Virus record (IMG/VR): IMGVR_UViG_3300032291_003166
Direction: 5' to 3' (one strand)
Length of the DNA stretch: 12,588 nt
Source: a virus
Taxonomy: Duplodnaviria > Heunggongvirae > Uroviricota > Caudoviricetes
The notes under the pieces were generated by a model. It was not told the origin of the DNA, searched no databases, and worked only from the letters and a program-made list of their open reading frames with translations. Made by a program: the position numbers and the translations under genes. The number at the start of each line of letters is the position of its first letter. The stretch's first letter is position 1. This document shows, piece by piece, positions 7,463 through 12,124 of the stretch.

Positions 7463-7745
7463 AAACTGCTAATATTTCTGTTTCTTTAGTTATGTAATAA
7501 TCTTCTCCATCAACAGTAAGTTTCATTGATCCCATCTTAGGAATAAGTACCTTATCACCTGCTTTTAGTTGAGATGGATACAATGCACCTGTATGCCAAT
7601 TGTATGTATCACTAGATTCAATTACTTCACCTATTTCAGGTTTCTCTTTCCCCATATCGGGAACTACAATGTTGCCATAAGTTTGTTCTTCTTCTTCAAT
7701 AGGTCGAATCACAACGTGGCCATTTAGTGGTCTTATTTTGCTCAT
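7455..7745 (-). CDS. groES: co-chaperonin GroES (Cpn10)
   Basis: IRPLNGHVVI, mobile loop TYGNIVVPD, GEVIES, LKAGDKVLIPK, EILAV; 8-nt overlap with the groEL start. Confidence 0.95.
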   Translation of the reverse strand: MSKIRPLNGHVVIRPIEEEEQTYGNIVVPDMGKEKPEIGEVIESSDTYNWHTGALYPSQLKAGDKVLIPKMGSMKLTVDGEDYYITKETEILAVYE

Positions 7746-7763
7746 ATATCTCTTTTATTTATA

Positions 7764-7795
7764 TAAATGTAATTAATTTTCTTTCGGTAACCAAG
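7764..7795 (-). promoter_or_regulatory. candidate promoter for groES-groEL (CTTG-N20-TACATTTA)
   Basis: TTG at 7794-7792 and TACATTTA at 7771-7764 with a 20-nt spacer, the same spacing as upstream of hsp20 and pol. Resembles the Bacteroidota TTG/TTTG...TAnnTTTG consensus. Confidence 0.6.
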
Positions 7796-7985
7796 CAATT
7801 ACTTCAGCTTCTTGTATTTCTTCTAAAAAATATAAATAGCCTTCTTTTCTTAACACTCGATTTGCTCCGTAATGTTCTTTTAAAAATGTTAAAGCATCTC
7901 CAACGTATTTAGGATCATCTAATTTACGATACTTTAATACGTGTAATGTGTCCTGAAAATTTATTAATTGACTTGATGATATCAT
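7773..7985 (-). CDS. hypothetical protein (70 aa)
   Basis: Fills the gap between hsp20 and groES with an AGTT-ATG start context like other genes here; no family recognised. Confidence 0.75.
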   Translation of the reverse strand: MISSSQLINFQDTLHVLKYRKLDDPKYVGDALTFLKEHYGANRVLRKEGYLYFLEEIQEAEVIAWLPKEN

Positions 7986-7995
7986 AACTAAGATT

Positions 7996-8008
7996 TATGG
8001 TAGGTCTC
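7996..8008. repeat. left arm of 13-bp perfect inverted repeat flanking hsp20 (TATGGTAGGTCTC)
   Basis: Exact reverse complement of gagacctaccata at 8741-8753. Confidence 0.9.
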
Positions 8009-8014
8009 TTTTTA

Positions 8015-8680
8015 TTATCCTTTGATTAAGGATTTAGCTGTTTTGATTTCGATTTTTTTAGGTTTATTTTCTTTAGCGAATGGAATCTCTAATGTTAATA
8101 ATCCTTTATCTAAACTAGCTATTAATTTAGCTAATTCATACTTAGAAGATACCTTCCAAGCAATATCGAATCCTGCCTTTTTAATTGAACGATGTAAGTA
8201 TCGGTACTCATTTTTCTCCTTTTCTTTATCGTCATCTGTTTTACGATAAGCTACTCTTAAAGTTTCTGAGTCTACAATAATATCGATTTCTGAGTCCTCT
8301 AATCCTACTGCGGCAATTTCAATTTTTAAACCGTTATCGGTTTCTTGAATGTCAACTGGGTGTTGAACTGCTTTTTCTGAGATTGGTCTGTAATGTGCAT
8401 TTTTATCGAAGAAAGACTTCCATAATAAATCCATTGTTTCATCAAAGTTCCAATAATCGTTATAGGTTTGAGGTATTTGGTGGGGTTGTTGCCAGATGGC
8501 TGTTGTACCAATATTTGATAAACCTGTTAAATATCCTGCTGTACCATGTGTACTTGTTAGAGTCGTACCTGAAGTGTACGTTCCGTTTGTTAGTGATGTT
8601 GTAGAGTTGGGATATCCAGTTGTTATTGTACCAGATAAATCTTCAAATACTACGAACACGTCTGTAGTTTGTTTTTTCAT
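8015..8680 (-). CDS. hsp20: small heat shock protein (Hsp20/alpha-crystallin domain) with Thr/Gly-rich N-terminal extension
   Basis: HPVDIQETDNGLKIEIAAVGL..IDIIVDSETLRVAY..RSIKKAGFDIAWKVSSKYELAKLIASLDKGLLTLEIP..KKIEI (I-x-I motif). The start could alternatively be the Met at 8434. Confidence 0.9.
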   Translation of the reverse strand: MKKQTTDVFVVFEDLSGTITTGYPNSTTSLTNGTYTSGTTLTSTHGTAGYLTGLSNIGTTAIWQQPHQIPQTYNDYWNFDETMDLLWKSFFDKNAHYRPISEKAVQHPVDIQETDNGLKIEIAAVGLEDSEIDIIVDSETLRVAYRKTDDDKEKEKNEYRYLHRSIKKAGFDIAWKVSSKYELAKLIASLDKGLLTLEIPFAKENKPKKIEIKTAKSLIKG

Positions 8681-8740
8681 TTTTTGTCATTTATGTTCCC
8701 CTAAGGTGAACAGTTAATAATTAATTGTTTTTCATAACTT

Positions 8741-8753
8741 GAGACCTACCATA
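8741..8753. repeat. right arm of 13-bp inverted repeat flanking hsp20
   Basis: gagacctaccata, the reverse complement of 7996-8008; lies in the hsp20 leader downstream of the candidate promoter. Confidence 0.9.
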
Positions 8754-8771
8754 GTATCTCTTTTATATATA

Positions 8772-8803
8772 TAAATATACTAGTTATCAGAAAGACGAAC
8801 AAG
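8772..8803 (-). promoter_or_regulatory. candidate promoter for hsp20 (CTTG-N20-TATATTTA)
   Basis: TTG at 8802-8800 and TATATTTA at 8779-8772 with a 20-nt spacer. Confidence 0.6.
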
Positions 8804-9514
8804 ATAGTAAATAGATTCTACCTCTTCTTCTTTAAATGTTAATTTCATTAATCCTTCATTACTAATCTGAATTAATGCTTCACTAGCATCTTCATTTGCT
8901 TTTAATACTTCAGTCATTATATCAGCAGGAAATGGTAATTCACTTAAACCAAATAATGCCTCACATGGTGTTTTAAATTTAATTTTATTAGCATAGCCTG
9001 CTCCATCTCCTAATACAATTACACATTCCATACCTTCACCCTCAGTATATTCTGCTTTAACAGAGAATTGTTTAATATCACCTAATGCTTTTTTAGCATT
9101 AATAAATTTACTAATAAATTCTTTACTAACTGGAACTTCAGCATCATAGCCATTTGGTTCATTAATCACAGGTACTGTTTCAATTAAATTTAAATCTGAT
9201 AGATAGTAATTTAAGTCATATTGATTATCAGCTATTGTTAATTCAAGTGGTGTTCCTCTTCCACTTTTATTTAAGTTTAATACAATAGTAGAATCCATAA
9301 TCTTAATTAATTTAGAAAATTGACTAGTATTGTAAATACCAATTTCACAATTTTCTAGATCAAAATTAGGACTAGTCACTTTACCCACTAGATTTTTAAA
9401 CGGACTTATAAAGTCAACAGTAATGTTTTTTTTATCTACTGACCATTTAACTGATTCAACTATACCATTTAGATAATATTTTTCGAGAACTGATACGATA
9501 GTGTTTTTATTCAT
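8780..9514 (-). CDS. DNA polymerase sliding clamp (T4 gp45/PCNA-like)
   Basis: 244 aa with alternating beta/alpha pattern, a PCNA-like ending (LMKLTFKEEEVESIYYLVRL), directly downstream of a family B polymerase. Confidence 0.75.
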   Translation of the reverse strand: MNKNTIVSVLEKYYLNGIVESVKWSVDKKNITVDFISPFKNLVGKVTSPNFDLENCEIGIYNTSQFSKLIKIMDSTIVLNLNKSGRGTPLELTIADNQYDLNYYLSDLNLIETVPVINEPNGYDAEVPVSKEFISKFINAKKALGDIKQFSVKAEYTEGEGMECVIVLGDGAGYANKIKFKTPCEALFGLSELPFPADIMTEVLKANEDASEALIQISNEGLMKLTFKEEEVESIYYLVRLSDN

Positions 9515-9518
9515 GATG

Positions 9519-9550
9519 TTAATATAATAATCTTTTTAGAATGAGAAAAA
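9519..9550 (-). promoter_or_regulatory. weak candidate promoter for the clamp gene (TTTT-N20-TATATTAA)
   Basis: TTATTATATTAA just upstream of the clamp ATG resembles the other leaders; both elements deviate from consensus. Confidence 0.3.
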
Positions 9551-12124
9551 CTTATTTACATAAGCGTTTAATGAAGGAAATGACCATTTTAAATCTTCAT
9601 ATATACCTTGTAGTTTATTTAATAATGTTGAATTAAACCCAGCTTCTTTATCGATAAACTTAATTATAAAATCAGTTATAAATTCTGGATCGTTACCTGT
9701 GAAACCTAATACTTCTATTTTATATGGGTTATCTTTTAATTGAACATAATACATTTTATCACCTTCAGTAAAACACGGATATTGTTTATCTAATTTTTTA
9801 AATCGCAATAAATCATTATGCCATATAGCTGCTTTAGTATTAATAGGACATTTTAATTCTAATTTAGAAAATATTTGACCAGCTTGAGGAGGTGACTTAA
9901 TATATTTTTTAATATTTCTAACACCAGTTGGTTTTGCTATACTTTTAATAGGAACAGAATCTAATGTTTTCTTAAAATCAATAATCTTTTTATCAATATC
10001 TGTTTTGGTTTTACCATACATTATATCTAATAAAATACCTTCACCAAATTTACGATACATTGGATTCATGTTTGATTTCATTACATCCATTCCTTTAATA
10101 TCTAACTCTTCAGTTGGTACACCTTCTTTATTTACAATGAATTGAGCGTAACGTCTTTTACCTGCAAAGTAACCTCGTTCAAGTACTACTTCTTGTTTTA
10201 ATTCAAAATATTCATTATCAACATTGAATAAATCTTTACATAAATTTTGTAAGAACGGACCAGTTTTATCTTGATATTCTTTAGTTATTTCAAGTGCTAT
10301 TGGTACTACTTCTTCTCTACTATTAATATTAATATCTGGTTTACGTTTTAAAATTAAATCCTTTAATTCAAAAAATAAACTATCTGTATCAGCGGTAATA
10401 ACATAATCTCTTTCAACACCTAATTCAGTACTAACTTCTTTATTTATAAAATCAATTGATTCTTGATCCAACCTTTGACCAGTTAAAGTAATTGCTTTAC
10501 TAATAAATAAATTACCATCACTATATCTCCACCCGTTTTGAGCAAATACACCATAAACGTCATTTAATTTAATTTTAAATGTATGTTGTAAACGATTATA
10601 ATGCTCTCCCTTAGCAGTGTCGCCCGCTTTATATGCTTGCTTCATTAAGTCTTTATATTGTTTTCTCTTATTAAACCAATCGTTTAATATTTCCACTACA
10701 ATACTTGACTTATCTTTTCTAAATAAAGTTCCATTAGCTGATATAATTAATTTATTAGTTTCAACTAATTGAATCATATCTTTTACTTTGATATAAGTTA
10801 ATTTAACTCTTCTATCTGATGTAACTTTTTCAATTGGTATTTCTTCCTCACCATCCATTTTCTTTAAATCACCTAAACCCCACTGGTTATCATACTTATG
10901 ACTATTTTGTATTCTACCAATTAATGTTTCTATACCCATATTTAAATTACGAATAATAGATGGATATAGTGATGTAAAATCTAAATCGGATACCCACTCA
11001 TATAAACCTGGTACTGGATCTTTAAGATACCCACCAGCGTATTCTTCATTTGCTTCTCTTAATGCTGGATTATAAGTAGTAGGTTTATTTGGTGATACTA
11101 TATCTTCACGTTTTAGATAAGTGAAAATAGCACCTTCATTTAATGAAGTAGAGTAATAAATATTACTATATGGTGTATGACATAAATGACATATGTTAAC
11201 TGTTAAATCTATAAATTGTAATTTTTTATCTAATTCAATTAATATTTCAACATCTCGAATATTATAATCAATAAATTTATTTACATCTTCTTTAAATAAT
11301 CTATCTAATGATCCCTCATATTCAATCTTACCTAACTTAACATATTTTTCACCTATGTCTCCTAATTTATATGACGGTTCTTGCTTCATAATATATTTTT
11401 TATGAAGTAACATATAATCGAGATGGTTAACACCTGCTATATTAATTACAGATTCATTAGTTTGAGTTTTCTTATTAAAATAATCATGTACAGATACAAT
11501 ACCTAGTGGTGATAATTCTTTAGCTTTATGTTCACCTAATACTTTACAGATACGATGATATAGATAAGGTATATCAAAAAATTCACTATTCCATCCAGCA
11601 ATAATAGTTGGATCTGCTTCAACCCATAATGATACAAATTTATGTAATAAATCTGCTTCACTATCACATGGTATAATTTCTTTATTATCTTCTAAAGCAA
11701 ATTTTAATTGTTTTTTTTCATCTAAAATTAAACAGTAGTATTTTTTAAGAGTAACATCATATAAAGATATTGATGTTATTTTCATTGGTGCTGATTTAAT
11801 ATACTCAGTAGTTAATGCCCCACCAATTTCACACTCAATATCTAGAAATAGTACATTATGATATTGTGGTGCTTCATCTTCATTTTTATAAGCATCAACT
11901 AATATCCTAGTTTCCATAGGAACATCAATTTCATAGTAAGTTAAAGGATCGTTTTTATCACAAGTACGTGATGGAGATACTCGTTTACCATCTAATGTTT
12001 TATATTGGCCATTAGGATCGAGTTTATAATAGGTAGGATAATATTCAAATGATAACCATCCTTGTTTATCATCTCTTAGATGACACGTTTTTGTTTTATA
12101 ATCGTAATATATTCCCTGATACAT
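9536..12124 (-). CDS. family B DNA polymerase (T4 gp43-like) with 3'-5' exonuclease
   Basis: ExoI LFLDIE, ExoII GWNSEFFDIPY, ExoIII YNIRDVE, motif A DFTSLYPS, motif B KIKLNDVYG, motif C TADTDS, KKRY-like KRRY, IKGMD, and a hydrophobic clamp-binding-like tail NKFFSF. Confidence 0.97.
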   Translation of the reverse strand: MYQGIYYDYKTKTCHLRDDKQGWLSFEYYPTYYKLDPNGQYKTLDGKRVSPSRTCDKNDPLTYYEIDVPMETRILVDAYKNEDEAPQYHNVLFLDIECEIGGALTTEYIKSAPMKITSISLYDVTLKKYYCLILDEKKQLKFALEDNKEIIPCDSEADLLHKFVSLWVEADPTIIAGWNSEFFDIPYLYHRICKVLGEHKAKELSPLGIVSVHDYFNKKTQTNESVINIAGVNHLDYMLLHKKYIMKQEPSYKLGDIGEKYVKLGKIEYEGSLDRLFKEDVNKFIDYNIRDVEILIELDKKLQFIDLTVNICHLCHTPYSNIYYSTSLNEGAIFTYLKREDIVSPNKPTTYNPALREANEEYAGGYLKDPVPGLYEWVSDLDFTSLYPSIIRNLNMGIETLIGRIQNSHKYDNQWGLGDLKKMDGEEEIPIEKVTSDRRVKLTYIKVKDMIQLVETNKLIISANGTLFRKDKSSIVVEILNDWFNKRKQYKDLMKQAYKAGDTAKGEHYNRLQHTFKIKLNDVYGVFAQNGWRYSDGNLFISKAITLTGQRLDQESIDFINKEVSTELGVERDYVITADTDSLFFELKDLILKRKPDININSREEVVPIALEITKEYQDKTGPFLQNLCKDLFNVDNEYFELKQEVVLERGYFAGKRRYAQFIVNKEGVPTEELDIKGMDVMKSNMNPMYRKFGEGILLDIMYGKTKTDIDKKIIDFKKTLDSVPIKSIAKPTGVRNIKKYIKSPPQAGQIFSKLELKCPINTKAAIWHNDLLRFKKLDKQYPCFTEGDKMYYVQLKDNPYKIEVLGFTGNDPEFITDFIIKFIDKEAGFNSTLLNKLQGIYEDLKWSFPSLNAYVNKFFSF

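Follow-up and report, generated by a model that had tools for sequence, protein, structure and literature searches.

The DNA analysed here is a window of 12,588 nt from the IMG/VR virus record IMGVR_UViG_3300032291_003166, in which the small heat shock protein gene hsp20 is bracketed by two complementary sequences, or arms, one in the 5′ and one in the 3′ untranslated region (UTR) of its message. Comparison with related phages, together with predicted folding, indicates that these arms very probably pair as a conserved long-range RNA helix that closes the hsp20 coding region in a loop. All coordinates refer to the whole window, and the elements of interest lie on its minus strand (Table 1). 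All genes lie on that strand and run in the order family-B DNA polymerase, a 244-aa gene, hsp20, a 70-aa open reading frame (ORF), groES and groEL.

Table 1. Features of the hsp20 locus in window coordinates (CDS, coding sequence; uORF, upstream open reading frame).
Feature	Position	Strand	Remarks
5′ arm, GAGAUAC-UAUGGUAGGUCUC	8760-8741	minus	GAGAU 8760-8756, outer strand; AC 8755-8754, internal loop; UAUGGUAGGUCUC 8753-8741, core
3′ arm, GAGACCUACCAUA-A-AUCUU	8008-7990	minus	GAGACCUACCAUA 8008-7996, core; A 7995, unpaired; AUCUU 7994-7990, outer strand
hsp20 CDS, 221 aa	8015..8680	minus	Pfam HSP20, E = 7.9e-9; in the ~730-nt loop closed by the helix
Promoter-like box, TATATTTATATATAT	8765..8779	minus	Directly past the stop codon of the 244-aa gene; 4 nt ahead of the 5′ arm
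Leader hairpin, UGUUCACC-UUA-GGGGAACA	8694..8712	minus	RNAalifold columns 59-75 compensatory: CG:21/UA:3; UA:17/AU:6
Mini uORF, AUG AAA AAC AAU UAA	8721..8735	minus	AGUUAUG context common to the next gene
70-aa ORF downstream of hsp20	7773..7985	minus	Without family match; AUG 4 nt past the 3′ arm
244-aa gene (orf244)	directly upstream of the hsp20 promoter-like box	minus	Function unassigned
Family-B DNA polymerase (polB)	9536-12124	minus	

The initial annotation of this DNA had reported a perfect 13-bp inverted repeat around hsp20, and re-reading the sequence bore this out (8741-8753 and 7996-8008); the 13-mer GAGACCTACCATA has exactly two copies in the window, one per strand. The proposed extension of the helix to about 18 bp through GAGAU/AUCUU was reproduced by RNAduplex, which returned 13 bp, a 2x1 internal loop and a further 5 bp (one of them G.U), giving 18 bp at ∼-27 kcal/mol. 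The 3′ arm begins 7 nt past the hsp20 stop codon. An inverted repeat of 13 bp anywhere in 12.6 kb is unremarkable, but between the flanks of one ORF it is remarkable. When the 100 nt upstream of each ORF were compared with the 60 nt downstream for 15 window genes, using 200 shuffles, the hsp20 flanks shared 13 Watson-Crick pairs, a value reached by 0 of 200 shuffles (maximum 11). The other 14 genes gave 5-8 bp, which is the shuffle level, leaving hsp20 as the sole gene with such a match. With G.U pairs permitted, the single-sequence p value for hsp20 was ∼0.02, and the decisive support for the helix is comparative, coming from conservation and covariation across relatives. The arms had also been described as embedded in directly repeated flanks (ATAAAA..., ...AGTTATGA). 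Such repeats are present in the window and in its close relatives L036, L017 and L018, but are not conserved across the family, and they are partly explained by the self-complementary ends of the arms (GAGA...UCUY) and by the frequent use of AGTTATG as a start context in this phage.

To assemble relatives, hsp20 scans of IMG/VR and JGI metagenomes were used to build a main set of 35 loci with 25 distinct arm pairs, and more distant homologues (41-47% protein identity) were found by exhaustive profile search and retrieved, apart from P0138, with their flanks; hsp20 homologues at E <= 1e-5 numbered 379. Both arms were present, and complementary to each other, in all 31 related lineages with usable flanks, as the initial annotation's covariation check called for. 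Their positions were also similar: 24-66 nt separate the 5′ arm from the hsp20 AUG, and the 3′ arm begins 6-25 nt past the stop codon across all lineages (8-25 nt in the main set, 6-10 nt in 11 of the 31 lineages). The arm duplex measures 14-22 bp across the 31 lineages, and in the main clade all 25 distinct pairs of arms form 15-22 bp at -24 to -36 kcal/mol. The loop enclosed by the helix is ∼450-750 nt.

Arms were retained in the distant homologues even where their sequence had changed. Loci L058-60, which encode a short small heat shock protein with 47% identity in the same synteny, keep the arms. In L061 (GGUAGGCCCC/GGGGUCUACC), both sides have changed at two pairs that never vary in the main set, one of which is now G.U, and L071 carries UAGGCCUU/AAGGCCUA. 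The arms of L068/69 are GCAGGGAC/GUCCCUGC plus flanking pairs, and in L068 four core positions differ, all of them compensated. Two lineages have arm sequences unrelated to those of the main clade at the same positions. L062 forms a wholly different perfect 15-bp helix, GUUUACUGGCAAAAC/GUUUUGCCAGUAAAC (∼21 bp when extended), downstream of the canonical T4 late-promoter motif TATAAATA, and L070 has the arms UGACUUGACUG/UAGUCAAGUCA, followed by an ordinary terminator. Thus, at the level of sequence comparison, the architecture is conserved and the arm sequence is not. No copy of the exact window 5′ arm was found in IMG/VR. In L068 and L069, the module of hsp20, a small ORF where present, groES and groEL, with its UTR helix, adjoins a family-A (PolA-type) DNA polymerase, and the chaperone module is therefore common to phages with different replication genes. 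The hsp20 genes of the T4-like cyanophages P-SSM4, Syn33, S-H38 and ACG-2014f had flank matches no better than chance, so the helix is not general to phage hsp20. One further candidate, L066 (MG065691.1, "UNVERIFIED: Campylobacter phage A11a"), was set aside, since it reads like Escherichia coli IbpA, has GC-rich flanks and lacks the helix; the hsp20-like sequence in this record probably derives from the host or from contaminating DNA.

Covariation was scored with anchored scripts that counted the pairs. RNAalifold, when run on a whole-locus MAFFT alignment, caught only 3 long-range pairs, with the 3′ arms of four sequences misaligned. In the main set, five pairs (AGGUC/GACCU) are invariant and four neighboring pair columns switch from one Watson-Crick type to another by changes on both sides (p1, UA:8/CG:17; p2, GC:5/AU:20; p4, UA:16/CG:5; q2, CG:14/UA:8). 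Cognate arms paired at a mean of -28.3 kcal/mol compared with -22.4 kcal/mol for non-cognate combinations, and 0 of 10,000 permutations reached the observed mean. On a tree built from the conserved hsp20 domain, the pair types GGU/ACC, GAC/GUC and GAU/AUC are found side by side within single clades: one clade unites the window and L036 with L012 and with L013-15, from which they differ in pair type, and in a second clade the type of L026 is not that of L039 and L041. The q2 pair, too, changes state within a closely related clade. Because of this alternation and the q2 flip, several independent double compensations must have taken place.

Folding predictions gave the same helix. It was found in the minimum-energy structure of all 31 full-length RNAs, and in each of them the number of arm-arm pairs expected in the ensemble was about equal to the duplex length or slightly above it. 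For the window, the arm-arm pair probability was ∼0.99 in fold contexts of 782-1336 nt, and the fold z-score of the 782-nt RNA was -5.6. The window core was predicted to be paired at ∼0.99 to 55°C or more, and with p >= 0.94 up to 75°C, which speaks against the suggestion in the initial annotation that the element might be a thermosensitive switch. RNA thermometers of small heat shock protein genes (ROSE, fourU and cyanobacterial hsp17) were rejected as a class, with the core stable to 75°C and the start not covered; an Rfam scan of 7700-9000 returned chance-level matches only, with no thermometer family near threshold.

In the main clade, each arm is in addition self-complementary at its ends (GAGAU...GUCUC and GAAGA...UCUUC), and the 9-11 nt loops that would result are mutually complementary. 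The window 5′ arm alone folds into a 5-bp hairpin, GAGAU/GUCUC. Across the clade, the 5′ local hairpin has a mean of -3.7 kcal/mol, against -1.8 for shuffles, and shows covariation of its own, while the 3′ arm folds only weakly by itself (mean -2.0 kcal/mol; shuffles, -1.3), and its hairpin is marginal. Local arm hairpins are absent from L062 and L070. The universal feature is the long-range duplex and not the local hairpins, which we read from these models as a lineage-specific kinetic aid, consisting of a co-transcriptional 5′ hairpin with possible loop-loop nucleation. In L012, L013-15, L032 and L039, the end pairs of the arms fit the long-range duplex and not the local hairpins.

The arms sit in two untranslated regions of one transcription unit, and its boundaries bear on what the helix might do. 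Ahead of the 5′ arm, all main-clade relatives read carry a box with the consensus TATATATTTATAT, of which there are ∼12-14 copies per complete relative genome (in G001, 11 of 12 on the hsp20 strand). At 9 of the 10 other box sites read, an ATG lies 0-24 nt downstream. We infer from its sequence and distribution that the box is a phage promoter. The hsp20 leader is 75-90 nt long, which is exceptional because other box-driven genes have leaders of 0-24 nt. Wherever the box was seen, the 5′ arm follows it by 1-19 nt, and because the arm is so close behind the box, it should lie at or near the 5′ end of the mRNA. Given the short distance between box and ATG at the other genes (loci L047-L057), some box-driven mRNAs may be leaderless. 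A similar box, with an exact TATAAATA, precedes groES in the window at 7753-7770 (minus).

On the other side of hsp20, the neighbouring gene varies, being the 70-aa ORF, groES or a 187-aa ORF whose start, judged by eye, resembles a GIY-YIG nuclease. The spacer from the 3′ arm to the next AUG is 4-54 nt among the relatives (4 nt in the window), and most spacers have no promoter box. None was seen between the 3′ arm and the 70-aa gene in the window, and by its sequence hsp20 appears to be co-transcribed with that gene. Because the next gene is close and most spacers lack a box, the 3′ arm is internal to the operon, and a nuclease cut would therefore be needed to make an hsp20 3′ end there.

A duplex bracketing one cistron inside an operon has, by analogy, the look of an RNase III excision stem, and its length is near that of RNase III substrates; icaR provides a bacterial example in which UTR pairing gives rise to an RNase III site (PMC3868564). 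Our favoured, though tentative, interpretation is that the helix serves as a processing and stability stem of the RNase III type that excises the hsp20 mRNA from the chaperone operon. In this scheme, hsp20 would be transcribed from the phage promoter box, probably with a contribution of upstream read-through, in a polycistronic transcript covering hsp20, the small ORF, groES and groEL. The 5′ arm in the main clade would fold first into its small hairpin, and once the 3′ arm had been transcribed the two arms would pair into the 14-22 bp duplex. Host RNase III, or a similar double-strand-specific nuclease, would then cut the duplex and release a monocistronic hsp20 mRNA, much as rRNA is released from its precursor. 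The ends of the excised mRNA would remain paired and protected, the downstream genes would continue on an RNA of their own that has a short leader, and the outcome would be to uncouple the dosage and lifetime of hsp20 from those of its neighbors. Of the earlier proposal that a long-range RNA stem closes the hsp20 mRNA, the stem itself has gained from the conserved arms and multiple independent compensations, and excision by RNase III is its favoured function as a prediction.

Several observations weigh against this interpretation, some of them against the helix and others against its cleavage. The folding predictions leave out ribosomes and co-transcriptional kinetics. In L025, L027, L035, L041 and L042, the pairs at the arm ends are better accommodated by the local hairpins than by the long-range duplex. 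Evidence from strand asymmetry that the element works as RNA is modest: for the trimmed arms of 29 pairs, the transcribed strand was the more stable in 17 and the less stable in 9 (means -27.1 and -25.8 kcal/mol), with a Wilcoxon p of 0.025 that is uncorrected for relatedness, and there were 16 interior G.U pairs on the transcribed strand compared with 11 on the opposite one. An earlier comparison with 8-nt flanks and fewer lineages gave 12 against 10 (p = 0.09), and 19 against 21 G.U pairs. Some of the helices, at 14-16 bp with bulges, are short for RNase III. Neither an RNase III nor a double-stranded RNA-binding domain was found in the related genomes G001 and G002 (complete) or G003 and G004 (partial), so that the host enzyme would have to act. 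In L070, the normal terminator past the arm can let the hsp20 3′ end form without cleavage. The processing role as a whole is a prediction from sequence and folding.

The helix could instead stabilize the message without being cut, with the mRNA 5′ end hidden from end-dependent decay in a compact, long-lived message, and perhaps with terminating ribosomes kept near the start. The location of the 5′ arm, 1-19 nt past the box and thus at or near the mRNA 5′ end, fits such a closed loop, as do the high predicted stability of the helix and the long structured leader that sets hsp20 apart from the other box genes with their 0-24 nt. L070 fits as well, since its arm directly precedes a normal terminator and both arms would be near the ends of the mature mRNA. 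In most genomes, however, the 3′ arm is internal to the operon and without a terminator, so the 3′ end would be unprotected unless it is cut, and the distance between box and arm varies, leaving up to ∼15 unpaired 5′ nt in some lineages. On balance, stabilization without cleavage seems unlikely.

A translational lock or timer like that of hok, in which the paired mRNA would be inert until 3′ trimming or terminating ribosomes free the 5′ arm for translation, is less easily reconciled with the data. In hok, a comparable long-distance stem, tac/fbi, joins the two ends of the full-length mRNA and locks it (PMC9841398), the 5′ arm of hsp20 has an alternative local hairpin with covariation of its own, and in the 11 lineages where the 3′ arm starts 6-10 nt past the stop codon it is within reach of a terminating ribosome. 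In many other lineages, however, the 3′ arm lies 14-25 nt past the stop. Between the 5′ arm and the AUG lie 24-66 nt, RNAalifold returned no conserved alternative pairing that involves the start region, and in the window the leader hairpin forms together with the long-range helix rather than in its place. We regard such a lock as improbable.

It is very unlikely that the helix acts as a long-range intrinsic terminator or attenuator, with a gene-sized loop, the A-rich 5′ and U-rich 3′ flanks (UAUCUUCAUUUU) serving as tracts, and reduced read-through into groES-groEL. U-rich sequence does follow the 3′ arm in most relatives, and there is no local terminator between hsp20 and the next gene, unlike groEL and the transfer-messenger RNA (tmRNA) of the window, both of which end in ordinary terminator hairpins. 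Against this, nucleation of a helix across ∼700 nt within the pause window is kinetically unlikely, the U-rich stretch itself belongs to the outer helix, a distinct canonical terminator directly follows the arm in L070, and the downstream genes need read-through where no box follows the arm. Assignment to the ordinary class of intrinsic terminators was rejected, because the 3′ arm alone folds weakly and the stem requires the distant 5′ arm.

We likewise give little credence to an hsp20 mRNA that is excised at the stem and works with its ends joined, either as a base-paired "pseudo-circular" molecule or as a true circle ligated by the host. In such a message, the proximity of stop and start would be part of translation in a host that does without Shine-Dalgarno pairing, and Shine-Dalgarno sequences are absent before the start codons of the window. 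Circularization, which the initial annotation had listed, found no specific support, and no match to an RtcB or Rnl2-type ligase was obtained in the complete genomes G001 and G002. If it were true, an end-joined hsp20 message would give bacteria or phages an equivalent of the closed-loop mRNA of eukaryotes.

The arms are also inverted repeats that flank one gene with its promoter outside, and the evidence for RNA from strand asymmetry is modest, but it is hardly credible that they act at the DNA level, be it as sites at which an hsp20 cassette is inverted or mobilized by recombination or as an asymmetric protein site in both orientations. An invertible segment and an operator in both orientations had been raised in the initial annotation, and neither found support. 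hsp20 has the same orientation as polB, orf244, groES and groEL in 24 of the 24 syntenic loci compared, and the inverted junctions that had been proposed as a check were not seen in Logan contigs of four DNA runs, which held only strain variants, although contigs can miss rare forms. No Pfam match to a serine or tyrosine recombinase (PF00239, PF00589) was obtained in the complete genomes G001 and G002, while control genomes matched. The arms are usually unequal in length by a one-nucleotide bulge, and G-C, G.U and A-U alternate at the same pair. A search for further copies of the core returned only the hsp20 arms, with exactly two copies of the core 9-mer in each of the two complete 171-173 kb genomes and in two partial ones, which argues against an operator. 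A multi-copy repeat element (a miniature inverted-repeat transposable element, regulatory repeat or operator family) was rejected with the core present just twice per genome examined and twice in the window. Finally, complementarity is conserved and arm sequence is not: in L062 and L070, the sequences have been replaced with complementarity kept, and a protein site would need three-way co-evolution.

The leader between the 5′ arm and the hsp20 start contains further features. A conserved hairpin, built of a stem, a purine-purine mismatch, CC/GG and a UU(A/C)(G) loop, coexists with the long-range helix in the predicted folds of the window. Hairpins of similar architecture occur in the hsp20 leaders of the T4-like cyanophages P-SSM4, Syn33 and S-H38, and the hairpin may be an ancient regulatory or stabilizing element common to many phage hsp20 mRNAs. 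The mini uORF is found in L036, L019, L042 and L038 but is absent from L012-L016, L024 and L025, and because some relatives lack it, it is not a conserved part of the element. An out-of-frame AUG at 8690 (minus), 10 nt upstream of the hsp20 start and 7 nt past the GGGG of the leader hairpin, opens 15 codons to a UGA; it is absent from L012 and other relatives and so is probably not functional. A conserved motif, GUUUUGAAA, always adjoins the inner end of the helix, on the side of either the 5′ or the 3′ strand. In the window it is GUUAUGAAAAAC at 8727-8738; it stands past the 5′ arm in L017 and L018, and directly past the hsp20 stop codon in L012-L016, L019, L022-L035, L039 and L041-L044. This motif might be a single-stranded recognition or cleavage site.

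The N-terminal third of Hsp20 (8442-8681, minus; codons 1 to ∼80) is rich in Thr, Gly, Ser and Asn and is hypervariable. Compared with L036, it shows 43-60% identity with indels, and the flanking genes are 90-100% identical; a contig from another lake run has 159 different letters in place of 8468-8690. From these sequences, rapid diversification or segment exchange looks to be confined to the N-terminal arm of the protein. The window also encodes the phage tmRNA (4621-5031, minus), which was detected as Rfam RF00023 with 77 bits (E = 7e-29) and was not called by ARAGORN. With respect to the source, the window polymerase has at most 35% identity to that of any cultured phage, the top match being a Microcystis phage and the next T4-like cyanophages, and because of this low identity the source is, on its sequence, an uncultivated and distantly T4-like phage. 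Megablast of the locus and tblastn of hsp20 gave zero matches among cultured phages, and the runs containing the window DNA are lake and freshwater metagenomes, with no RNA run listed for the locus among public runs.

Pairing between the two UTRs of one message has precedents, and the earlier statement that no described system is of this type was too strong. In the icaR mRNA of Staphylococcus aureus, the 5′ and 3′ UTRs pair in cis, binding of the 3′ UTR motif UCCCCUG to the Shine-Dalgarno region prevents initiation, and the duplex is an RNase III site (PMC3868564). The hsp20 arms are likewise complementary 5′ and 3′ UTR segments of the same transcript, as seen in 31 lineages, but they differ in that the 5′ arm is far from the AUG (24-66 nt), with the ribosome-binding site not in the helix, and in that a 14-22 bp duplex surrounds a phage chaperone gene in an operon, with RNase III cleavage only proposed. 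In the hok mRNA of plasmid R1, the tac/fbi stem locks the full-length mRNA as part of a toxin-antitoxin switch that sequesters the Shine-Dalgarno sequence of mok and is opened by 3′ trimming (PMC9841398). The resemblance is that the full-length mRNA is closed by a stem whose two strands come from its distant 5′ and 3′ ends, but the only alternative found for the hsp20 5′ arm is a small local hairpin, and no coupled pairing with the start region was found.

Other RNAs share parts of this arrangement. In bacterial rrn precursors, RNase III stems with arms hundreds to thousands of nucleotides apart flank the 16S and 23S rRNA. As at hsp20, distant complementary arms bracket a functional RNA in a polycistronic precursor, but the rrn stems are much longer and enclose non-coding rRNA, whereas hsp20 is a translated mRNA for which cleavage is a prediction. 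The intercistronic RNase III sites of phage T7, which cut and stabilize individual mRNAs of polycistronic transcripts, are also double-stranded phage RNA elements between genes, but they are local hairpins, one per junction, and the hsp20 helix consists of two distant halves around one gene. In the hbs mRNA of Bacillus subtilis, the stability of the message is linked to an interaction of its two UTRs; the likeness lies in the pairing of mRNA ends, the organism, gene and sequence are different, and no homology is implied. A search of Rfam 15 gave no match near a gathering score in 7700-9000, and the tmRNA is the sole Rfam family in the window, although Rfam covariance models cannot span a loop of ∼450-750 nt. 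No description of the hsp20 helix was found in Rfam or in full-text literature searches, and it is apparently undescribed. What is known is thus pairing in cis between 5′ and 3′ UTRs in general, and what is new is this hsp20 variant.

Functional pairing between the 5′ and 3′ ends of an mRNA has been described in very few cases in bacteria and phages (hok, icaR and hbs), mostly found gene by gene. That dozens of phage lineages keep this architecture around a single gene, with compensatory evolution and, in two of them, arm sequences unrelated to the others, is strong comparative evidence that closure of the loop is selected. Searches for structured RNAs that are restricted to local folds miss such elements. 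Two arms of 20 nt and one gene make up a small, testable system for the role of 5′-3′ pairing in the processing, stability and translation of phage late messages, and the hsp20 helix bears on the dosage at which phages produce their own chaperones compared with the products of neighboring genes.

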